A stretch of 64,000 bases of DNA from Squalus acanthias. Its lineage: Eukaryota. Below are positions 32,620-47,526 of the stretch, in pieces. How positions within the stretch are numbered: position 1 is the first letter of the stretch; each line of letters opens with the position of its first letter. The stretch spans positions 43,340,001-43,404,000 of the forward strand of contig CM059432.1 in assembly GCA_030390025.1 (NCBI GenBank), read 5' to 3'. The notes under the pieces were generated by a model. The model was not told the origin of the DNA. It did no database searches and saw nothing but the letters and a program-made list of their open reading frames with translations. A program made the position numbers and the translations under genes.

Positions 32620-33154
32620 ATTGTATTTCTGAATCCAGGTCATTTATGCAGATTAACTACATTAGGGGTCCCAGCACCCATTCGTGCTGCACGCCATTCA
32701 GTACGTCTCCACAGTCAGACATCACTCCCCTAACCAGTACCTGTTGTTTCCACTCTTTCAACTAATTACATATCCACCTCCAAGTTTCACTTAGAATACT
32801 TAGGGGGAAAAAGCGCCCCGTTTGGGGCGCAAATATCGTCCGGGTGCAAAAATTAGCGCCTGGCGCTAATTATCGCCACTGACTGGAAACTTCACTTTTA
32901 ACGCCCCAGGAGGTGAGTGGAGCGCTAAATCAGGCGCTGCACACCTGTCTTAAGGCACAAAGGCCGAGCAGTGAGGCGCTAACTCAGCGCGCGAGCGCAG
33001 CGCAGGTGCTGCCAGTTAGCGAGGGAACACAGACACACTGGCGCCAGCCAGTTCTTAAAGGGGGGGGGGGCATCTTGCTCCCCAGCCACACCCTGCTCAT
33101 TGCAGCATTGAATCTCGGCCTGGAGAGACCTGTGAATCCATTTTGCTGCCAAGG

Positions 33155-34974
33155 ATGGAGAGGGTGAGAGAACGAGCTCAGCGCTTCACCGAGCGGGCCT
33201 TGGATGCTCTGGTTGGTGCGGTGGAGCGCAGAAGATCTATACTCTTCCCTGAGAGTGGCAGGAGGCCTTTGCCACGCGAGTACAGAAGAGTGTGGAGGGA
33301 GGTGGCTCAGAGCGTCTCCTCCAGGAGCATGGTGCCCAGGACCCATGTTCAATGCCGCAAAAAGTTCAACGACCTCACTCGGGTCGTCAGGGTGAGTGGC
33401 TTTTTCTCAATACCTCTCCATCCCTCCATCTCAACCTCACTCTATGGCCAGAGGGTCTTAAAACCCCAATGCACAACACTCATCCAACACCTATGGCCCT
33501 TTCATGAAACACACACACACATTCCACACTTTGCATACAGTAAGGGCTATTCACCTATGGGAGGCACATCAGGCAAGACCATGGCTGTATACAGTAAGGG
33601 CTATTCACCTATGGGAGGCACATCAGGCAAGACCATGGCTGTATATTTACTCAGATGCTGTCCTTTTTCTTGCAGACCAAGCTGGCGCATAATAGGAGAC
33701 AGCAGCAATGGACAGGTGGAGGGCGGCCTCAGCTGCAACCCCTCAGCGATCTTGAGGAGCGCGTCCACAGGATTGTGGCAAGCCGGGTGATCGGTCCCGT
33801 CGCCACTGGAGACGCCGACCCCGTTCTGGACAGCAATGGTAAGGTCATCACCTTTTTGTCCTCTGTCCTTCCACTTGTCCCTCACAACACCAGCCTTTGA
33901 CACTTTCAATCCAACTTACTAACTCGCTGCACTTATTCCTCCCTTACTGCCACCCTGTCCTCATGCTAAAGCCACTCTTGTACCTCCCTGCTTTCAGATG
34001 GTGATTCACCAGCTGAGGAGACGGGCCCTGAAGCTGCCAGTGGGAGTGAAGCTGCAGCCGAGGAGGAAGAGGAAGCCGGAGCATCAGTGCCACCCTCTCC
34101 CGAGGAAGCCCATACCCACACTGGGAACACGCCTTCCCTGGATGGGAGCAGGGGGGAAGGGTCTGATGAGGGTGAAGCTCCAGGACCCAGCGGGCTGCAG
34201 CAACGCCATGGGGGTAGGGAAGAACGGGGGCCTTCTCCCCAGAGGGAGAGTATGCCAGCGACTCCTACTGCAATGGACGCAGAGGAGGAGCGGCTGATCA
34301 CAGAAATGAACACCCAGGCGGTGGGCATGCACACTGAGCTCATGGGTGCAGTGGGAAGGGTGCCCGAATGCATTGAGTCACTGGCAAGGAGTGTGGAGCA
34401 CTTCGCTGTAGCACGGGCGGATGCCACACTAACGCTTAGTGCTGCAATTCAGTCACTGACTGCCGTGATCTCATCTCTGACTGCTCTCATGCAGACTCAG
34501 ATTGAGGCCACGCGAGCACTGACTGCTGCCATCCTCGATGGTTCGTTCATATTTCCCCGGGGCTCTCACCGCGCCGCAGCAGGCCAGCAATCTGTGCTCC
34601 AGCAGATTGCTCCGGATGCTGAAGTGCTGCCCCGTGGGAGTGCCAGTGTGTCGGTCGAGCAGGGAGTTGCTGTCCTCTCTCACGGTGACAGCATTCCTGC
34701 TGCCAACACTGTCACTTCTCCACTGCACTTGCCACCGCCTGTAGGAGAGACTGCTGCCGCCCATGCAGAGTTGGTGCAGTCTGCAGCCGGGCCCTCCAGG
34801 CCCAGAACTGGTCGAGGCCGTCATTCAGGGGCATCTGCAGTGTCAGGGTCTGACAATCAGCAGCCTTCCACCAGCCTTGCTGCAGCCACTGAGGTCCCAT
34901 TACGGAGGAGCAGTAGGGTTAGAAGGGGGGAAGTGCGCAAGGGAAGGAGATCACCCTCGAAGGGCAAAAAGTAG
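33155..34974 (+). CDS. Harbinger Myb/SANT-like DNA-binding protein, 3 exons (33155-33391, 33676-33838, 33998-34974), ~458 aa
   Basis: Exon 1 reads RFTERALDALV...WREVAQSV...RTHVQCRKKFNDL. Donors GTGAGT and GTAAGG and pyrimidine-rich CAG acceptors join in frame (phases 0 and 1) with no stop. The C-terminus is basic. Confidence 0.85.
33535..33642 (+). repeat. Perfect 54-bp tandem duplication in Myb intron 1
   Basis: ATACAGTAAGGGCTATTCACCTATGGGAGGCACATCAGGCAAGACCATGGCTGT twice. Confidence 0.9.
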
Positions 34975-35286
34975 GAGGTGTGACAAAATGCTGGTCATTT
35001 TTTTATTAAAGGCCAAGGTTCGTGGTCCAACTTTTGTCTAGTGTTTTGGACATTATCTCCAGGTTGTGAGAACCAGTTATGTTAATGACTGTTTTTTTGT
35101 GTTTATTTCTATGAGTTTGTCATGAGGAAATGACACACACAGAGTTTGTAAAATAAATAAGTTTTTGTATTCAAAATATACATGTTTGGTGTTTGGAATC
35201 ATTGGTGCCTTGGCCGGCTTAGGGGTTGCGTGCTGGGTTCATTGATGTTGTTAGCAATGACAGAAGCCATTTCCACAGCAGGGGCC

Positions 35287-36447
35287 CTAGAAGCGGCTTG
35301 CTATCAGCCGATGACGGACGGCCCTTGCAGTTTCACCATTGTGGGCCGCCCTCCCGCCTTGGTGCTGCTGATGATCATCCTCCTCATCCTCTTCCTCCTC
35401 TTCCTCCTCCTCCTCTGGTGGTGCTCCAAGGCCTGGTGGCATTGGCTGGGTCCTGACGATTGCCATGTTATGCAACATGCAGCACACAACTACGAAGTTG
35501 GATACTCGCCCAGGCGAGTACTGCAGGGCTCCTCCAGAATGGTCGAGACAGCGGAACCGTTGCTTCAGCACGCCGATTGTGCGCTCAATGATGTTCCTGT
35601 TAGCTTGATGGCTCTCGTTGTACCGCAGCTCAGCAGGGGTGTTGGGCGTACGGAGCGGTGTCATCAGCCAGGTGCTCAATGGATACCCCTTGTCCCCAAG
35701 AAGCCAACCAACTGGCTGATGCGGTGCCTCGAAAAGTTCTGCCACAGTAGTCTGGCGCAGGATGAAAGCATCGTGGCAGCTGCCAGGATAGTGGGCATTG
35801 ACAGCGAGTATCAGCTGTCTGTGGTCACAGACCAACTGAACATTCAAGGAATGGAACCCCTTTCTGTTCCGGAAATCCTCGGCATTCTCATGTGGAGTAC
35901 GCAAAGCCACATGCGTGCAGTCAATGTCGCCCTGCACCATGGGGAAGCCCGCTATCCTCGCAAAGCCCAGAGCGCGGTCACACTGCTTGTCTAGGGTCAT
36001 GGGGAAAGAGATGAACTCTCGTCTCCTTTTAAAGAGGGCATTTGTGACCTGCCGGATGCAGCAATGCACCGCGAACTGGGAGATATTGGCGAGGTCCCCA
36101 GCAGCAGCTTGAAATGAGCCAGTAGCATAGAAGTTGAGAGCCACTGTGACCTTCACTGCCACCGACAGAGACGTCCTGGACCTCAGTTGAGGCTGCAGAT
36201 CTGGCTGCAGCAGGTGGCAGAGCTCAGTGACCACCTCCTTGCTGAATCGCAGCCTTCGCAAACACAGCTCCTCAGACATATGAATGTAGGAGAGCTGTTC
36301 ACGATATACCCTGGGAGGGTAAGCTCTCCTGTACAGACGCCTGTTGGCCCTCCTCCGTCTGGCCATCATTGCCACTCTCTCTCTGCGTCTCTGTGTCCTC
36401 CGATTCAGCTGGAGCAGGACGACGCCCCCATTCAGTGCAGCCCCCAT
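35287..36447 (-). CDS. Harbinger DDE transposase (HARBI1-like), ~386 aa
   Basis: Uninterrupted ORF with IDCTHV, NRKGFHSLNVQ, PGSCHDAFIL, LLGDKGY, IERTIGVLKQRFRCL and CCMLHN. Likely ATG at 36447. Confidence 0.93.
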   Translation of the reverse strand: MGAALNGGVVLLQLNRRTQRRRERVAMMARRRRANRRLYRRAYPPRVYREQLSYIHMSEELCLRRLRFSKEVVTELCHLLQPDLQPQLRSRTSLSVAVKVTVALNFYATGSFQAAAGDLANISQFAVHCCIRQVTNALFKRRREFISFPMTLDKQCDRALGFARIAGFPMVQGDIDCTHVALRTPHENAEDFRNRKGFHSLNVQLVCDHRQLILAVNAHYPGSCHDAFILRQTTVAELFEAPHQPVGWLLGDKGYPLSTWLMTPLRTPNTPAELRYNESHQANRNIIERTIGVLKQRFRCLDHSGGALQYSPGRVSNFVVVCCMLHNMAIVRTQPMPPGLGAPPEEEEEEEEEDEEDDHQQHQGGRAAHNGETARAVRHRLIASRF

Positions 36448-39400
36448 AGTCTCTTTGCAAGCAAAGTTATGAAGGACAGCAACCAAAGTACCAGCGAAGT
36501 TAGGATCAGTAGGCAAAACTACCTCACAAAGCGTTGACTCAATGCAGAAGTCTCTCTTTCTCTCTCTCCGAATCTCTCTCTCTCTCTCAGAACGAGTGGT
36601 GCAAAAATGTCAACCACAGAAAAAGACAGGAAGAGGCCCCCTTTAAATAGCGCCCCCCCCAGCCCCACAGCGATTGATAGCGTTCCAGTCTTCCGGTCGT
36701 TGGATGCGCCAGGCGGTAAGGCAGGGGGCGCCACTCAATTTCTGCTCCGGGGCGCTACAAGGGCGTTGCACCATGGAATGACGTCACAATCTGCGCGCGC
36801 AGGTGGTCGCGGCGGTAAAGTTTAGCGCCGCCGCACAATGTCTAGTTAAGTTCCCGAGCGGCGCAAACATCGCTGCGCCCGGGCGCTAGCGGCTTTGCGC
36901 CCCATTAGCGCCCTCTTAAGGCGCTAACGGGAGGCGCAACCAACTGAATTTTTCCCCCTTACTGTCTTCAGCTTGTGCATTAGCTTTTCATGTGGCTCTT
37001 CATTGAAAGTCTTCTGAAAGTCTATCACTGCACCTGTTAACATCTACTTGGGGTGTAACTTCTTTGACAAAAAGTCAAAAGTTCGTAAGGCAGTATTTTC
37101 TCCTTCTGAAACTTTGTTGGCTGCCAGTTACTAGATTGTAATCATATAGATACTCCTCGATATTATTCCTAATGAATGATTTCATTATTTTGTCCATTAC
37201 AGAAGCAAGACTAATAGATCTGTTGTTGCCCAGGTCAGTTTTAGCATTTTGCTTATAAATAAGTACCAAATTATCAGGCAAGTTACAGCAGACTGCTCTT
37301 GTACATCTCCTAGCAGCCTGCTTTAGAGTTGTAATGACATAGGCTTTGGAGCAAGTTGTTTGGTTACTCTCTCTTCTGGGGAATGGGACAACCTGGGAAG
37401 GGACAGAAACAATTGAAAAATGGGGACCTTAAGAAAAACATAGTGGCAATATGTTGTAACTACTTCTGTGCATGGTTAACGAGAACACTTCCTGTTTCAG
37501 CTGAATGACGGAGTTGTCAAAAAAGTCTTTACAATGCTACTTGACACTGCTTTATACTTCCTTTTTTCAAATCATCATTTGAGCTTGCAAACTTTAACTA
37601 TATTTATAGGAGTCTAATGCTTCATTTATTTATTCCTGAACAAGGTGCTGCATTTAGAATAACTGAGTTGCTATATTTTTTATTTTTTAGAATATATACA
37701 TATATATATTTGCTAAGATGCTGAATTACTATTGTGCTGAATTACCATGAGAAATGATTGGGACACAGCAGGAAATATTAAGAAAATTTTAAATCATGAT
37801 AATTAATCTTTGTTATAAATTTGTGTGGCCCAAATAGAGACTGCTATAGTCCTCAAAGGAAACAAATCACCTCTAGGTGAAGAGATGAAGATCAAATAAC
37901 ATGATATAGCTTAATAAGTTCATTTGACACTTATAGTGGCACCAATATTACTTGCATGTCAGTCAGAGAAAAAATGCTATCAAATCCAGTTACCCGATTC
38001 ACAAGATTTACCCCAAGTGCAAGACCTCTAGTTAATAATGTAATTGCCTGCATTAAGATTTATTCACCAAACCTGTTAATATAAAGATGATCACCAATGG
38101 GTGCAGTAGTGCAATTTCAATTAAATAATAGAGATTAATCGGCTTCTGTAATATTCATCAGGTTGACTAAAGGCAGCTAGCTACTAACAGCAGACCTGAT
38201 TTAATCTCTCTGTAATAGGCACAGTGCTTTGTTACAGTAGCTATTATCATATTATTTATTAAATGTCTGCCTGCGTCAATCTCTCAGAAAAGCGATTTGT
38301 GAGATGCCATATGGTAGTACTTATTATTACAACAAAATCGAAAAAGCAGACACACACAAATCAACTATATGACATGGTGATTTTTTTCAGAATGTTGTCA
38401 GTAATTACCAATTGGCAAAGCGATAGCAGAGCTTCATAACCGGAAAATTGAGGACTCTTATTCAGATGTGAATCAAACGTAAAGTACATCAAAAATGTAG
38501 GCTGCAATGCTTACTTCATTAGACACCCATGTATCAAAAACAATTTCCACTAACCAACAATAATATGTTTCATTTAACTTGTCTGCTAGAAGCTAAAAGA
38601 ATTAACTGAAAGCAAACATTTGCAGTGGCAACAACACACTGCAGATTAATGAAACATGCAGTAGCTTCTTTTCCATTGTTTTAATTGTTAGGTTACTGGT
38701 TACCCCCACCCACCGAAGAGTAACTGCTCATTAAGGGAGGAATCATTTCCCCTTATGGTGTTCTGGAATGTATATGCTTAAGTGAAGAGTCTCGCTTTCT
38801 GTATTAGTGATATGTTCATTTGCCATGCAAAAGTGGAAGTGATATTCCAGCCGAAAGGTATATTTTTACAGTACTTCATGACCAGAACGTGCAGCTTCAA
38901 TGGACAAACTGGTTACTGTTCCAGACAGATTGACAAGTCATCATAGAGTCATAACGGCACAGAAGGAGGCCATTCGGCCCATCGAGTCCGTGCCGGACCC
39001 GTTACAGTTTGGCTGCACCAGGAATATTTTAGAGCCTTCTTCAGTTTTTACTTGATTCCAAAAAAATATTGAATTAGGAAATGCTTTGAAATCACATATG
39101 ATTACTTAGTTGTGCTTTATAATACTCAAAAATGTAACATTCTATTTGACCACAAGACCTAAAGCTGCGGAAGACATTCAGTACTGAAAAGTTAACAAGC
39201 TGCCTTTACACAGTATTGCTAGTTTTTGGGGCCAAAACCCGATGGGCCTGTGATCCCGGCAATATGCCAGGAATCGGCCTTCACCGCTGACCCTGACAGA
39301 TCCTCCAAGATCAGGAGCAGTTTTTTTTTTATTCATTCATGGGATGTGGGTGTCGCTGGCAAGGCCAGCATTTATTGCCCGTCCCTAATTGCCCTCGAGA

Positions 39401-39466
39401 AGGTGGTGGTGAGCCGCCTTCTTGAACCGCTGCAGTCCGTGTGGTGAAGTCCGTCACTCTGGTCGT

Positions 39467-41818
39467 TTACGCGGCGCTTTCTTCGTGCACGCGCACGTAA
39501 CGCTCTCGCCACTCTCCCGTGTTTTCCTGTTTGGTGAGGCGCTTGCCTCTCTTGCAGTGCACGACCAATAGGTACACTACAATTATTACCTGGCATACAA
39601 CTAAAATGTGGGAGGCTATTCTAATCCAGGAAGGCACTTCAATATTGGTGAACTGATCCCACCACGGTGGGATTACTATGTCTAGGATCTCTGACCCTAT
39701 CTCGACAGTCTTTTGCTCAAGGGTATAAAAATGTTTCTGCGAAACCGCTACGGCTTTCAAAAGCTTGGTGAGGTGTTCAGGGAGAGGGGGAATGATGTAT
39801 CCGAAATGCGCGACAAATCGCTGCAAGTCGGTGAAATTCTCTTTTACTGTAAGATGAACAGTGGATGGTTCAGGGATTGGGACAATTCGCTGCTGTGCCA
39901 CTTGAACTTCAGCCCTGGGTTTAAAACAGAAACTGCTGTCACTCACCGGACACCGGCTACGGTTTCCATGCTGGTAGTGTTGCGCTGCAGTGGTAACGCA
40001 ATATGTTCCACCCCCTATGTATGCCACCTGCGGAGGCACATGATCTTGTGCCATTGCCTCCATGGTGCAATTCATGGGCTTGGCGCCAGCCATTCTGAAC
40101 CCGCACTGTGGTGATAAAAAGGCATTCAAGTGCTGGGGACACAGGTTTATGTGTGCTCCCCTGTCACGACAACCAGAGAGATCTGTACCTGTCATCGTTT
40201 GCTCCCAGCGGATGACGTAAGGTGGGACCGCTGCGTAGCGAATGTGGGATCCCCCCTGAATGACACCAATGTTCTCTACCCGATACACCGGGGCGGGCTT
40301 TGCTGTGTCGCCCAAAACCGGTATACGTAAGACTATACCCATAATGGTATGGTTTGACCGTCCGCAGTCCACGGGGACTGGGTATGCTTCTGAGGCTAGC
40401 CTGAGCTGGCACGGGCTTAATGCGTTCTGAAAAGGGTGGAGCGCCTGCAGGTGTTTGTTACTTATCTAGGACGGGACCAAACCTTGTTTTAAATCCTCCA
40501 AATTACTGCGGCCCTCGCCCAGTAACCACGCCCCGTATAGTACGCACACCTCGTTCTGCGCAGCTTGATCGGATGCATTCCGATCTTCCCTAATCAGGGC
40601 ATTTACCGTACGCGCATGTTTCTCCAGCTCAGCTATGATTTCTTTTAAGTGGATCGTCATGGCCTGGTCTTCATGTAACCCAGACCCTACCACCTTATTT
40701 TCGTCTGTAAGGATATTCTTCAATTGGGTTTTTAAACCATTAATCTGGGTCTGCAACTCCACGTTATCTAGAGCGTTGACCACAGATGTCCCTGTATTGA
40801 AAGCGGTGAACATGTCGTTCACAACACCCCTTCTTTGTCTCCCCACCTGGCCCAAAACTTCGTGTGGTGTGGTGTACAAGCTTGTCTTGTCAATCTCTGC
40901 AAAATCAAACTCGTAGAATTGTCTAAACATGTTGGTCAACAGGACTTGATATAACTGTTCCGTCTCTTTGGGGCACCACTCTGGCAACCGCACCTCGGTG
41001 AGATTTAAAATCACCGAGGCCACCGCGTAATGTACCCCCTGAAATAGTATCTGGTCTGTGGGGACCAGTACCAAACCATTCCCGGGTCCCTTACTGGTTT
41101 TAGGGCACCCTTCTTCCTGAGCCAAAACTACCGGAATCGTGGGCGGGGCCTTGCGTGGGCGCGTAATGAGTTCAGTGGTGTTTACCGGGATCGGAGAGTA
41201 TGGGGCTCCGCACCCCCTGGTGCTTACATCCCACCTCATCCCCTGCCCGTTATCCTGCCACTGATTCACGAAAAATATGGATATGCCTTTGGGGCAAACG
41301 TGCTTTGACCCCCACATACATACATAGATTCCCTCATCCGGTTCCCACCATTTGTCCCAACAGACTCTCAATTGTCCGTTAGTCCCCGTAATTGTCCGAT
41401 GGGTATTATTACCCAATCGCTCCCATTCAACCGAAGAATTCCTCATATTTCTGCTCAGCTTTCGTAGCCACCACCATCGGCTCAATGGGACATTCCCATT
41501 ACAAGTCAAACAAATCCGTTTGCCGACGGTGATGCTGACTCTGGGTGCGATGATCCTCACTTTGGGGCACATCAAAGAAGTCTCTTTATAGGCAAATCCC
41601 GATGTACTGGAATATTCAGTTGAATTCGTTCCCAGCCATCCTGGCCACCTTCCTTTGTGGAAATAAGTGGCGATCTCCTCAGCCTCTCGCCTCCCGGTCC
41701 CATCCACCGCGATGGGGGCTGTGTCCCCGGAGCATCCAAACACCACGACATCCTTGGTGCGGCCTCGATAGGCCAATCCACATCCAAATGCCGCGAGCAC
41801 TACCAGAATCCGTTCCAT
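39467..41818 (-). pseudogene. env: Envelope glycoprotein (~783 codons) with one in-frame TAG at 40466-40468
   Basis: Signal peptide MERILVVLAAFGCGLA, Ig-like motif, furin site RQRR, fusion-peptide-like GVVNDMFTAFNTGTSVVNAL, heptad repeat, Cys-rich region, TM ILVVCQVIIVVYLLVV and basic tail. ORFs 40466-41935 and 39467-40372 share a frame with 31 open codons between them. Confidence 0.85.
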
Positions 41819-42087
41819 CCTTCCTTGGTTCCTGTGATCAGATAGAATGAGGTAGCCAGCCTCCCAAGAGTCTCTGGCTTTTGTGAAGGATGAGCGGGTC
41901 CCCTGACCTCGCCTCACGTAAAAAGACATGTGCACTGGATAGACCTTTCAACTAAACCTAATCTAAACTCCCATCATTTATCTTTTACTTATCAAATTAA
42001 ACTATCAAACTTACAAACTTACAAACTATAAAACTTATCACTTATCTTATAAACTGTACAGCGCCACCCGTTCCCAGGGCGGCCTAC

Positions 42088-43200
42088 CTAAATTCTGTGA
42101 AGGCGGCCACGAGTTTTTCCCAACGGTGGGAGGGCACCGACCCCTTCCTTTGATCTGCCGCAGCCTGTCTCTGCTGCGCTGTGACTGGGCTCTCCCTGGG
42201 CTGCCTTAGCCTTCAACCTACGCTTTGGGACACTCTGGGGACTTGACCATATCTTCCTGGGCTGGGGTGTCCGACTTGACCTACGGGGAGCTACCGGGGG
42301 CAAGAACTCCAGAACCGACGGACCGGGTTTCGAGACTTCCACCGTCGCGACCTGTGGTCCCACCACAGCCGCTGGCTCCGCCTCCCCTAGCTCCGCCTCC
42401 CTGAACTCGGGATCTGCAGTCTCTGGCACCGCCCTACTTGGCCCAGTAGGCGGCCCTTCACTCGCAGTCCCTACCTCCCCCGAGGGCAAGACTCCCAAGG
42501 CGGACGGACTGGGTTCTGAGACTTCCATCGCCACGTCCTGTGGTCCCGCCACAGCCGCTGGCTCCGCCTCCCCTAGCTCCGCCCCCCTGAGTTCGGGACC
42601 TGCAGCTTCTGCTTCCACCTTGTGTGGACCTCCGCACGCAGTCCCTATCTTCCCTTTACTTGAATCGGGGGCGAACCCTTCGTCCTCCGATCCCAGCTCC
42701 TCTTCGCTCGGGTCACTATCTTGGTCAAGCTCCTTGAACTCTTCCTCATCTGACTCCCAACCCCAATAAAGGATCCTACATTTTGCTAGGATGTCCTCTC
42801 CCCTGATGCAAGCTGCTTTGCCAGCCTGCGTGCCCTGCGGTCCTACCCGGGGCTGCGAGTCCCCACTCGCAGGTTTGGCCCCTGTGGTTGGCCCTTGTGC
42901 ACCCGGCTTATACAGCTTGCACTGGTTAAAATCCTCATACTTCCTGCTTCTGGCTACCCTGCAGGCTGCTTTTATCTCTCTAAGCTGCCCTTCTAGCCCA
43001 TCTATTTTCCCCATTAAGCGGGCGTTCTCCTCCCGTAAGGCCTGCTCTCTAAGCTGCCCTTCTAGCCCGTCTACTTTCCCCATTAAGCGGGCGTTCTCCT
43101 CCCGCAGGGCCTGCTCTTTTAACCTGGCCTCCTTACAGGAGACCCCCTCCTGTGCATGTCTTTTAAAAGGACACAGGTAGGCAGGCTGCGTGGGCTCTAG
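42088..43200 (-). CDS. ORFX: unknown coiled-coil plus acidic/Pro-Ala-rich protein, in frame with gag through a UGA-CUAG stop
   Basis: Open for 370 codons from the codon right after the gag stop. Contains a 2x23-aa coiled-coil repeat, a 2x ~38-aa AELGEAEPAAV repeat and a basic C-terminus. No pol motifs. Confidence 0.65.
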   Translation of the reverse strand, partial: LEPTQPAYLCPFKRHAQEGVSCKEARLKEQALREENARLMGKVDGLEGQLREQALREENARLMGKIDGLEGQLREIKAACRVARSRKYEDFNQCKLYKPGAQGPTTGAKPASGDSQPRVGPQGTQAGKAACIRGEDILAKCRILYWGWESDEEEFKELDQDSDPSEEELGSEDEGFAPDSSKGKIGTACGGPHKVEAEAAGPELRGAELGEAEPAAVAGPQDVAMEVSEPSPSALGVLPSGEVGTASEGPPTGPSRAVPETADPEFREAELGEAEPAAVVGPQVATVEVSKPGPSVLEFLPPVAPRRSSRTPQPRKIWSSPQSVPKRRLKAKAAQGEPSHSAAETGCGRSKEGVGALPPLGKTRGRLHRI

Positions 43201-45024
43201 TCATTGGGTACTGTTGGACGGGGCTGCGGCATCTGTGGGGCCGGTAGCGACTGCTACCCTTCCTTGCGAAATCATGAGGGTCCGCATGGCTCCCAGCATT
43301 GATTCTATCGCATCGGGATGGATATGCACACCAGCTCCCTTATCGGGGGCAGGCGCCTGGGCTCGGGCTGCGGGATTTTTATCCCTGGACTCTTTCCAAG
43401 GGTTCCTGCAGTTCTTGCGCCAGTGCCCTGTCTTTCCGCACCCGAAACAAGCATTACTGGCTTGTGGGACGCGATTTCCCTCCTGATGCCACTCCTTTTG
43501 AGCCGGGGCGGTGGGCCGTGCCTCATGCACCTTTCCCTTAAGGGGACGCGCCCCCGTGCTCCTTGTGTTACGGTATCCTACCGTGAGTCGATTTAAGACC
43601 GACTCCTCTGTTGTGGCGGGGTTAGTGGGATCAAACCACGCTTTTGCCTGCTCCCTGAAGGCTGGCAAACTGTTGGCTACTACACACCTGAGCCAATGAG
43701 TTAAACCAACGCCGTCCAAATAGGCGCGCTCTGGCGCCCCTGGGCAGCTACGCTGGTATACTGGCCACAGCCTGTCGGCGAAAACCTTCAGGAGTTCTCC
43801 CTCCATCTGCACTGTCTGTCCCAATCTAACGAACGGACCTTCATTGTCCGCCCCCAACACTTCCAGGACCTCGTCCCTTAATTCCCCATAGGTATGATCT
43901 CCCCTTTTGCTCGCGTCTGAGAGACACTGTAGGACCGAGCTGTCTAATGAGAACAGCAGCATTTTTGCCTTTTCCCCATCGTCGCAGCCGTTAATGGCTG
44001 CGGTCTGCTCTACCTCCCTGAAATGTACGGAAGGGTCGTCTGACTCGGACAGCTTCCGTATGTGACTGATCATAGCCCTCAGCTGGTGTGCATTATGCGG
44101 CAACACAAGCTGGCTGAGGAGATACCCCGCTTCCCCACCTTCTCCGTTCGGGCCCCTCTTGATACCCGTGACCGGACACAACGGTCCCGGCTTCACTACT
44201 ACTTCAGGGGATTGTACTACCTCGGGGACCTCTTCCTCTACTTCTACCACTTCCTCCCTTACCCAGGTTGCCGAATAGCTGGGTGGCGCGGAGGGCACAG
44301 TGGCAAATACCTCCTCTGCTTTGTTTGGTAGGGATTTTTTGAATTCCCCACCCACCAGCGGCTGGTGTGCTGACGGGCTGATAAGGCACACCATGCCGTG
44401 CGCTTTATTCAGGGCCTCTTTAAGGTTCCCTATCTCTCTCTGGCAGACGCTGTGGTCGGCCCCCTCATGTTTATCTTCAAGGGCCATCTTATATGCCGCC
44501 CTAACTCCCTTCAAGCTTTCTTCTTGGGCTTTTATTTGAGCAGCTAGGCGGGCACATCGTTCCCTGATTCTGCCCTCATTTAATTTTGCCTCAGTGAACT
44601 GGCACTCGAGGTAATCTATTTTAGCCTCATGGTGGTTGGCTACTATCTGGCGTTCCTGATGCAACGCATTTAAAGACGCGATGAGCTGCTGCCCCCCCGC
44701 AACCTTTTCCTCCATCTCCACCACCAAACCCGTGATCTGAGCTGCCTGCGCTACGATGACCTGGTCCGAAAGCTGGACTTGCCTTTTATAACACATCAGC
44801 CAGACCGCTTTCTCTACCGATTTTCTGTGCTCTTTACTGCCTGTCCACCTGATGGCTGCGTCTAGCGGACGCTTATCCACCAGCAGGTCACTTATCCATC
44901 TCTTAGTCAAATTAACCTTACCAAACACATAATCGGCTATTCTCTCTTCCATAACATTTCGCCCATTCATACCAGGGTCTAACACATTACTTTCTCGCTG
45001 CCAGTGTCCCTTCGTGGTCGCCAT
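43201..45024 (-). CDS. gag: Gag (N-terminal helical/coiled-coil region, capsid-like region, CCHC nucleocapsid)
   Basis: 607-aa open ORF directly after the LTR, with zinc knuckle CFGCGKTGHWRKNC and capsid-like DDPSVHFREVEQTAAINGCDDGEKAKMLLFSL. The first ATG overlaps the PBS, so the true start may be a downstream Met. Confidence 0.88.
   Translation of the reverse strand: MATTKGHWQRESNVLDPGMNGRNVMEERIADYVFGKVNLTKRWISDLLVDKRPLDAAIRWTGSKEHRKSVEKAVWLMCYKRQVQLSDQVIVAQAAQITGLVVEMEEKVAGGQQLIASLNALHQERQIVANHHEAKIDYLECQFTEAKLNEGRIRERCARLAAQIKAQEESLKGVRAAYKMALEDKHEGADHSVCQREIGNLKEALNKAHGMVCLISPSAHQPLVGGEFKKSLPNKAEEVFATVPSAPPSYSATWVREEVVEVEEEVPEVVQSPEVVVKPGPLCPVTGIKRGPNGEGGEAGYLLSQLVLPHNAHQLRAMISHIRKLSESDDPSVHFREVEQTAAINGCDDGEKAKMLLFSLDSSVLQCLSDASKRGDHTYGELRDEVLEVLGADNEGPFVRLGQTVQMEGELLKVFADRLWPVYQRSCPGAPERAYLDGVGLTHWLRCVVANSLPAFREQAKAWFDPTNPATTEESVLNRLTVGYRNTRSTGARPLKGKVHEARPTAPAQKEWHQEGNRVPQASNACFGCGKTGHWRKNCRNPWKESRDKNPAARAQAPAPDKGAGVHIHPDAIESMLGAMRTLMISQGRVAVATGPTDAAAPSNSTQ
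45006..45023 (-). promoter_or_regulatory. Primer-binding site complementary to tRNA-Arg(UCG)
   Basis: Minus strand TGGCGACCACGAAGGGAC. The plus strand GTCCCTTCGTGGTCG-CCA matches the 3' 18 nt of vertebrate tRNA-Arg-TCG as I recall it. Confidence 0.85.
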
Positions 45025-45028
45025 TATC

Positions 45029-47526
45029 TGTAAGGGGGTTTCGCCTGGCTCTGTGCTTAGCCTGGGTGCTAGTGCGAGGTTAGGCCTTGTTGCCCGTTCT
45101 GGTCTCCAGCCAGCCTGGTAGCACTAGACACCTGTGAGTGGTTCGACCCACTCGCCCTTACGGTTCTGACACTGGACTTAGGTGCGAGAGCAGTAAATGC
45201 AGAGAAAAACTCAGGTAGACCCGGTTGAATAGTACGAAATGGAAAATCTTTATTGCATATTATTCAAGATTACGAAATACATGTCATAAGCACAGATTAA
45301 TGACAGTACAAACTTACATACATTTATGCAACTAGGTTTAGGGAAACGAGGAACGCACGACACATCGTAAAAGGGGACACACATTATAATTATCCTTAAA
45401 ACAAAAACCCTCCCCTATCAATACCTGTCCTAATCTAGATCTGTAGGATCAAGAACCATGCTCACTACTCGTGATAACTCGGAGAATTCTAAAACGATGC
45501 TCGGATGTTTTCACCACAGCACCTGACTATTCACGTGTTGATCAGGGGTCTCTGTACCCCACTTGTTTACTCGCTTTGCTCCGGCTAGCAGGCTGGACCG
45601 TCTGCTGTCATGAAGATCTGTGTTGACCTCGGAACTCTGATAAAACTCAAAGAAGAGTCTTCCTGTGCCCGACACCGGTTGGCAGTAGAATTCGTGTGGT
45701 AACCTGTAAATGTTCTTTATAGTTCGGGCGCGGTCGGGGTTTACTGATCGCGGCGACACGTGTAGTCGTCTTGGGTCCGGCTGTAGAACTCAAAGAAAAG
45801 TCTTTCTGGACCGACACCAGTTAGCCGGTAGAATTCAAAGAAGAGTCTTTATATTTACGGGCGCGGTCGGGGTTTACTGACCGCGGCGGCACGTGTAGTC
45901 GTCTTGTTCTTCTTGTCTTGTTTCGTTTCATTGGGCCTTCGGGTCCCTACACCGTTTACCGACCCTCAGGATGGTGCACCCGCATACCGGCCTTTGCAGC
46001 CCAGCTCTTCACAGATCTTCGCGGCAAGCCACGAGGTTGACTCCCGGAAGATCAGCGGACCAAGAGCTCGGTGGGCCGCAAACGAGAGCCAGGGGTCGAA
46101 TCAAGAGAAAGATGGACGTTTGTTTACTACAGTTATAGTACTGTAATTCTTTATCTCCCGCCCAATCTTAATGTTCATCTTTTGTCATGTTTTTGGCGCT
46201 CAAACTCCTTGTATGGGGTGGTACTTGTCGTTAATGGGTTTCGGTGATACCTGTAACTGTCTAAGTACCCGTTAATATTTCTCCCATTATGGAACCGGTT
46301 AGGAGTCTCCCTGGAGGGGTTTTGGGGCCCTCCGAATTCTTGCTGTGAGTACCCGCGAACGGCTCTCTCATCATAGAGCCGTGGGGAATTTGCGTATCAA
46401 TGTCTTTGGATGGGCCCTTAATTGCCCAGTACAATAGCCCTCGTTTGTGCATGGAAAACCGATTCCAGCACTTATATTCTCTTAGGTGTACAAAATGCAA
46501 AACGATCGCGTCTTGTCTTATTTCATTATGCTGAGTACTGTCCGATCTTGCTGAAATGTTTATTGAAATGCCATCTTGTCTGCCTACTGAAAAGTCTAGA
46601 AACTTCTGCCACGAGGCGCGGCGGCCATTTTACAGGCTGCTTGTGTCCGTTTTTGAACCTGACAGCATTTTGCTGAAATAAAGCTGTTTTTACGAAACTG
46701 TATGGGCTAAAAATTCGGCTGCTTGCGCCTCCCGTTAGCGCCTTAAGAGGGCGCTAATGGGGCGCAAAGCAGCTAACGCCCAGGCGCAGCGCCGCCCACG
46801 CCTCCCGCAAAATTCAGCGGGAGGTTAGCGGTGGCACCAGCCGGTAGCGCCCTGTGGCGCTGCGCCGCCGGCGATGACGTCATCGCCGTGCGCAGCACCC
46901 CGCTCGCGCTCCAGCCGCGATCTTTAGTCGCGCCCCCTGATTTACCGCCAGACGCTATGTGCGATGGGTTCAGGGGGGCGTACGTGCGGCCAGGGCGGCG
47001 ATATTTAAAGGGGAGGTGGCAGGCGGCCATTTTTGTTGCTGGCCGCCTGCCAGCACCTGCCCCCGTTGCTGTCCCCGGCCCCCGTGAAGCCCCCCCACCG
47101 TGAAGTGCCAGCTGCACTCCAAGAGCCCGGCACTTCTCTTGAGTGCCGGGCTCTTTTGCCAGCACTCCCGATCCCTGGGGGCCCAGCTGGGCCCCGGTTC
47201 GCGATGCGCAGGGCCCCTCCCCTTTAAGAAGGGGAGGAAGGCCTGCAATACCGCGGCGCGACGTGCTGCAGCGCCTGGCGCTGCGGCACGTAGCGCCAGG
47301 ATATTCCCTCGCAGCGCCCCAAGAGGGATGCGGGGTGCTTCCAGTAGCGCCCCGCTTCCCTCTTGGGGCGCAACCACTGAAGTTCCGGCGCGGGGGCGCT
47401 AATTTTTTCGGGGCGCTAAACGTAGCGCCCCGGCGAGGTTAGCGCCCCAAATGGGGCAATACTCAATTTTTAGCCCTATGTCTCTATCTCGTTATTTCGA
47501 AATCGTGATAATTTGCGAATTCTACA
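45029..47526 (-). repeat. Putative 5' LTR (~1.72 kb after removing the MITE)
   Basis: Starts TGTAG exactly at the LINE junction and ends TTACA 5 nt before the PBS. AATAAA on minus at 45249-45254. No second copy is available to confirm it. Confidence 0.72.
46704..47476. mobile_element. Harbinger MITE related to the 32803-36958 element, inserted in the ERV LTR
   Basis: TIRs (GGGCTAAAAATT / AATTTTTAGCCC) and TSD TAT. It shares TTGCGCCTCCCGTTAGCGCCTTAAGAGGGCGCTAATGGGGCGCAAAGC with the reverse complement of the autonomous element's right end. Confidence 0.9.

Follow-up and report, generated by a model that had tools for sequence, protein, structure and literature searches.

Paramyxovirus and pneumovirus F proteins rely on a separate attachment protein, and the receptor modules of coronavirus spikes are not known to be V/I-set immunoglobulin (Ig) domains. 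Cell attachment by lokiretrovirus-type envelopes, and by other F-like retroviral envelopes, still lacks an explanation, since F requires a partner that is missing from these viruses. In the accessible part of one source, foamy virus Env, F and spike are grouped as class Ib fusion proteins, and F is treated as a scaffold that accepts receptor modules at its N terminus or between its subunits (PMC11468914). Lokiretroviruses, as portrayed in the available sections of Wang and Han (PMC7947760), share with the element reported here an LTR-gag-pol-env layout with a tether plus RNase H in pol, as well as an Env with a signal peptide, furin site, fusion peptide, coiled coil, transmembrane segment and weak PF00523 likeness, but no Ig domain is mentioned in those sections of the text or supplement. 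Where their Env has an R-X-K-R-type site, the Env described below reads RQRR. Since the screen in the same partial source recovered lokiretroviruses from none of six cartilaginous-fish genomes, our element may belong to another lineage.

The element lies in a 64,000-nucleotide stretch of the Squalus acanthias genome (contig CM059432.1, positions 43,340,001 to 43,404,000; hereafter the window). The gene of interest is the env of a high-copy LTR retrovirus made up of gag, a stop codon, a pol coding for PR, RT, tether, RNase H and IN, and env. A genome search returned 5885 candidate copies, and the 150 that were scored were each 94-100% identical. The window copy carries the following features:

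45029..46704, minus strand: 5' LTR of the ~1.65 kb type, TG...CA, with the first ~47 nt absent here (blastn to two-LTR sibling copies)
45006..45023, minus strand: primer-binding site, 18/18 nt complementary to tRNA-Arg(TCG) plus CCA (match to a genomic tRNA)
43201..45024, minus strand: gag, with a coiled-coil-like N part and one CCHC knuckle (zf-CCHC E 0.004)
42088..43200, minus strand: pol remnant, open frame (comparison with sibling copies)
41765..41821, minus strand: putative Env signal peptide (judged by eye from the sequence)
41570..41764, minus strand: pre-Ig segment of ~65 aa, conserved in the family, no assigned fold (sequence comparison)
41270..41563, minus strand: predicted Ig V/I-type domain, Env aa 87-184, with B-strand Cys107, C-strand Trp118 and F-strand Cys168 (profiles, predicted structure, alignment)
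41108..41269, minus strand: Trp/Cys stretch and Pro/Thr-rich linker (sequence)
40469..41107, minus strand: likely fusion core, first part, with conserved start motif, fusion peptide and heptad region (alignment to an eel Env that starts here)
40840-40829, minus strand: furin-type RQRR site (sequence)
40466..40468, minus strand: in-frame stop that breaks env in the window copy (sequence)
39467..40465, minus strand: likely fusion core, second part, with Cys-rich region and second heptad (Fusion_gly E 0.036)
39619-39563, minus strand: transmembrane helix (sequence)

Judged from these features, the window copy is dead: env is interrupted, ~3.6 kb of pol is deleted (PR, RT, RNase H and most of IN), and the element breaks off at ~39452-39465, just past env and without a 3' LTR. 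Among 20 copies fetched for comparison and selected for long open env frames, 7 share this type of pol deletion, one has another and 12 have a long pol, with a full-length sibling reading PR-RT-tether-RNase H-IN. Taken across copies, the element shows what is expected of a retrovirus-like LTR element, namely TG..CA LTRs, a short target duplication, a tRNA primer site and gag-pol-env. Its RT scores higher with MLV (211 bits) and foamy virus (195) than with Ty3 (143), which led us to reject a Ty3/Gypsy identity; a spumavirus identity was rejected on the Gag CCHC knuckle and the Arg primer. A search of viral contigs for a relative of the RT found none. Paired LTRs are 97.0-98.8% alike in 7 two-LTR copies, 4 of which are flanked by 4-bp target duplications; because shark substitution rates are slow, according to the accessible part of PMC4422223, this likeness need not mean very recent insertion.

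Several further observations concern the provirus and its surroundings. UGA-CUAG is a known read-through context, and MLV instead uses UAG with a pseudoknot. Here, the gag frame stops at TGA, CTAG comes next, and pol continues in that frame (window 43198-43203); the window and 17 of 19 readable copies have this sequence, with CTGG in the other 2. The primer-binding site starts 5 nt past the LTR end and overlaps the first gag ATG (window 45006-45024), so that the first residues of Gag are encoded by the primer site. The copies that lost pol and kept env (7/20 fetched, with an open pol remnant) form a subfamily that was likely spread in trans, and a 69-nt duplicated coiled-coil-like unit sits at the deletion junction (window 42927-43169). 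No env splice joint was seen in the four contig sets (presumed RNA) that cover the element, sets which cannot show transcription. Elsewhere in the window, a Harbinger-type DNA transposon with a DDE_Tnp_4 transposase and a Myb/SANT gene occupies 33059-36609, and related arms lie either side of the provirus, at 36848-36965 and 46697-46814.

The Env reading frame opens with a Met at 41821 (ORF translation, minus strand). An initial annotation of this DNA had quoted the residues of a V/I-set Ig signature, and all of them occur exactly in this frame. Env residues 87-184 (window 41563-41270, minus strand) carry VSITVG (41539-41522), CLTC (41512-41501), RWWWL (41479-41465), QLRVCW (41374-41357) and DEGIYVC (41338-41318). 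The same annotation set the domain between the signal peptide and a Pro/Thr-rich linker; the linker does follow, and then the fusion module, but the signal peptide is not directly adjacent, as ~65 residues (aa 20-84) intervene. The pattern C-x(8-16)-W-x(30-65)-D-x-G-x-Y-x-C, defined post hoc with the Env sequence already known, was matched by 7 of 20000 shuffles of the 451-aa frame. The domain also has two sequons (N128 and N138) and extra Cys pairs, 104/154 and 85/176, that may form further disulfides.

None of 25 family members deviates at the B-strand Cys (C107) or the C-strand Trp (W118), and 24 retain the F-strand Tyr and Cys, while the Asp of the F-strand motif is kept in 7, with mostly Glu in its stead. 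Between three subfamilies, selection on the Ig domain is purifying, and its divergence outpaces that of the fusion core. Of the 27 between-subfamily pairs, the 15 that escape saturation give a dN/dS of 0.10-0.19 for the domain, and in 27/27 pairs, which are non-independent, its dN is higher than the core's.

Structure prediction points to a V/I-type Ig sandwich for residues 87-184, in line with what had been proposed from the motif. An AlphaFold model built from a 38-row alignment (pLDDT 72.6, pTM 0.67) has eight strands in Ig order, forming a predicted two-sheet A-B-C-(C')-D-E-F-G sandwich, with Cys on the B strand, Trp on the C strand and D/E-x-G-x-Y-x-C on the F strand. Half of these rows come from distant Env families and may have biased the model toward Ig. 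Foldseek against PDB, which together with AlphaFold had been suggested as a check, gave a best E of 5.6e-6 at TM ~0.6, and the best 50 matches listed (E 5.6e-6 to 2.3e-5) are all chains of antibody, receptor or IgLON entries. A VIA structure comparison reached a best Z of 10.7 (rmsd 2.9 over 91 residues), with 214 chains at Z>=8; V-set and I-set matches fall within 1 Z of each other, and the model shows a short C' only. Identity to the solved Ig domains listed is 12-20%. The named viral fold matches are RL13, E3 CR1, poxvirus haemagglutinin, viral CD200 and IL-1 receptor-like proteins; no retroviral protein appears among the named rows of the best 50 viral matches, many rows of which are unnamed.

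Sequence profiles agree, weakly, with the predicted fold. The expected Pfam hit appears at the level of the family, with 24/25 members matching Ig_3 at E<=1 (best 4.6e-4; 0.17 for the window Env as a single sequence), but not at the curated cut-off, since all single-sequence scores (12.8-20.5 bits) lie below 30. In the ESM Atlas, with a score of 0.93, 9 of the 10 best named matches belong to one clan, that of Ig (recognition 2368). The family profile aligns to the V domain of CRTAM in PDB over its whole length, with all landmarks in register (E 0.026), and its top match is an unrelated ArfGAP zinc finger (E 0.014). These family-only results used no distant rows and are therefore independent of the possible alignment bias. 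Folding the single sequence gave a poor model (pLDDT 48), whose best structural match, to pilins, had a Z of 6.4. When the front half of Env was compared with PDB by phmmer, a designed coiled coil was all that came back, and word-based protein searches found little.

The fusion module was initially taken for a class I fusogen of retroviral env. A class I-type module does follow the linker, although its likeness is not to the orthoretroviral type but to F and foamy Env, and we regard it as likely to be of this class Ib type. The assignment rests on sub-threshold matches from two libraries, Pfam (Fusion_gly, E 0.036, below cut-off, with 2 of 27 rows matching) and PDB (foamy Env as the top match of the fusion-core profile, E 0.076). 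The core begins at Env residue 239, upstream of the RQRR cut. The possibility that domain II of F had been mistaken for an extra domain was rejected, since that domain is made up of discontinuous stretches within the core.

Named relatives come from a skate (74-77%), six shark genera and one distant eel protein, and searches with distant Envs revealed further Env families in the genome. At least seven other distant families (~25% identical; from this genome or other sharks) bear an Ig-like domain. Families B, C, D, F, G and H and the L136 type have a related one at the same place in Env, with fusion cores ~20-26% identical to that of the window family (A). Families B, C, D, F and G alone yield a profile that also recognises H, and all 55 of its PDB matches are Ig-superfamily proteins (best E 1.4e-6, summed over several domains), as are 43 of 44 for another Env-domain profile. 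Family D lacks the C-strand Trp and family C the F-strand Cys. A tree built from 33 core segments places the other Ig-bearing families in one clade (95/84), and family A groups weakly (91/77) with family E and P0010/P0011, long-branch joins being flagged. The arms of family E and P0010/P0011 are not recognisably Ig (HHalign gives a probability of 12% across 30 columns, and 5-56 of 300 shuffles attain their profile scores), and the ESM Atlas yielded no match for the family E arm. P0010 and P0011, together with L053-L062, are related Envs with different Cys-rich N-terminal arms that have a CxxC only in common with family A.

Direct homology between the two groups of Ig domains is weak: HHalign gives A versus B-H a probability of 10%, the A profile recognises family F (0/300 shuffles) and not C, D or H, and the B-H profile fails to recognise A (97/300 shuffles). 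One capture followed by loss and two captures are thus both possible. Capture of a host Ig domain, as first proposed, is plausible, but it would be ancient, and the search for the nearest Ig-superfamily gene produced no identifiable donor: the 11 genome matches to the most canonical Env Ig were other Env copies or noise, and 30 host Ig loci (fetched from 150 listed) scored at most 8-11 bits against Env profiles. Recent capture by family A was rejected given the presence of an Ig-like domain at the same place in the distant families. By these comparisons, the Ig domain is ancient and widespread in cartilaginous-fish retroviruses.

Three database proteins from Chiloscyllium, Scyliorhinus and Heterodontus (P0024, P0028 and P0030) are intact Ig-bearing family-B Envs of 739-754 aa, 85-88% identical across three shark orders, and are candidates for a domesticated env. 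The automatic UniRef name of P0024 is "Ig-like domain-containing protein". On a strict first look, the family-B copies found in G000 have stops or frameshifts. Two other database gene models (P0004 and P0003) join Env pieces to a zinc-finger gene and to Niban-like, and are possibly annotation artefacts or exonised Env.

We favour, with moderate confidence, the reading that the predicted Ig domain served as an attachment head integral to the fusion protein, which is itself likely of the paramyxovirus-F/foamy-Env type. What the analysis shows is the motif, its conservation in the family, the purifying selection, the proviral setting and the fold as predicted, and receptor binding is what we infer. 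The Ig domain is the sole variable globular part outside the core, its position on a stalk fits the F-scaffold design described in the accessible part of PMC11468914, and the copies compared contain no separate attachment gene, which together argue for an attachment head. The core itself does not require an Ig domain, as the N-termini of sister Env families without a recognisable one indicate. It is rather unlikely, by comparison, that the domain is structural, with attachment left to the pre-Ig segment or the core and the domain itself acting as a spacer, an aid to folding or a glycosylated cover of the fusion core. The conserved 65-aa segment ahead of the domain, which could instead be the binding part, would fit such a role, as would the two sequons and extra cysteines, the strong purifying selection without excess amino-acid change, and the absence of the canonical Trp in family D and Cys in family C. 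Nevertheless, the whole arm is absent from the eel relative, whose core follows straight after the signal peptide, and families that share a conserved core have radically different arms, a pattern that a specificity module would be expected to show.

A role as immune decoy or modulator, comparable with that of Ig proteins in herpes-, pox- and adenoviruses, would account for the named viral fold matches, which are such proteins, and for the lymphocyte receptor CRTAM as the top sequence match among Ig proteins. Those viral proteins stand alone, however, and mimics usually resemble a host ligand, whereas this domain is remote from the solved Ig domains listed and has no near host gene, so that we hold this role to be improbable. 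More improbable still is that the motif resembles Ig by chance or convergence, within a viral beta-sandwich that does not descend from animal Ig-superfamily genes. A beta-sandwich core is also found in gammaretroviral receptor-binding domains, and the sequence scores are sub-threshold. F proteins, too, possess an Ig-fold domain II, according to the part of PMC11468914 available. Yet the canonical Cys, Trp and Tyr-corner residues are in register with CRTAM, the PDB matches of the two Env-domain profiles are almost without exception Ig-superfamily proteins, and domain II belongs within a core that starts here only at residue 239.

If the Ig domain is an attachment head, Env would be secreted, trimerise and be cut at RQRR, and the front half (pre-Ig segment, Ig domain and Pro/Thr stalk) would remain tied to the core after the cut because the core starts upstream of it. 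The Ig heads would then attach to a molecule on the cell surface, possibly an adhesion protein that is also of the Ig family, and by pulling on the core might release the fusion peptide, much as has been proposed for foamy Env with its inserted receptor-binding domain. An animal Ig-superfamily gene may have given rise to the domain in the distant past, on one occasion or two, with later exchange or erosion between Env families. It is a tentative further suggestion, and one we consider doubtful as a whole, that this is an undescribed cartilaginous-fish retroviral lineage with an F-type fusogen, a captured and exchangeable Ig receptor head and many Env families, one env of which was domesticated across three shark orders. 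With its candidate copies in the thousands and its many families, a single genome offers a natural series of module gain, exchange and loss, and the intact relative conserved among sharks may be a domesticated fusogen.

Our search of openly accessible papers and preprint texts found no description of an Ig domain in a retroviral Env, and the word "immunoglobulin" does not occur in the accessible portions of PMC9040795, PMC12440569, PMC10435555, PMC5210030, PMC13709493 and bioRxiv 2023.10.26.564294. Host V/I-set Ig domains (CRTAM, JAM-A, contactins, NCAM2, titin, TREM2) resemble the modelled domain in fold and core residues, but at 12-20% identity no family stands out as donor, and the Env domain has an extra CxxC and an E-strand Cys-Trp. 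The Ig proteins captured by DNA viruses (the CMV RL11 family, adenovirus E3 CR1, poxvirus haemagglutinin) are likewise viral surface Ig proteins of similar fold, but are separate membrane proteins not fused to a fusogen. Foamy-like fish elements, in the available text of PMC5210030, are without Cys-His motifs and use mostly a Lys primer, unlike the window element with its CCHC Gag and Arg primer. Paramyxovirus and pneumovirus F proteins have the F-type core that this Env likely shares. So does foamy Env gp130 (PMC11468914, in part; PDB 8rm0, 8rm1), which also has its own receptor-binding module, although that module, 330 aa long and of a novel fold, is inserted ahead of the furin site and is not, as here, a predicted 100-aa Ig domain N-terminal of the core. 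Coronavirus spikes, according to the same partial source, carry their receptor modules at the N terminus of an F-type core. After the foamy insert and coronavirus S1, an Ig head would make a third solution, and would be a clear example of a host module of the adhesion type used to build a retroviral envelope.
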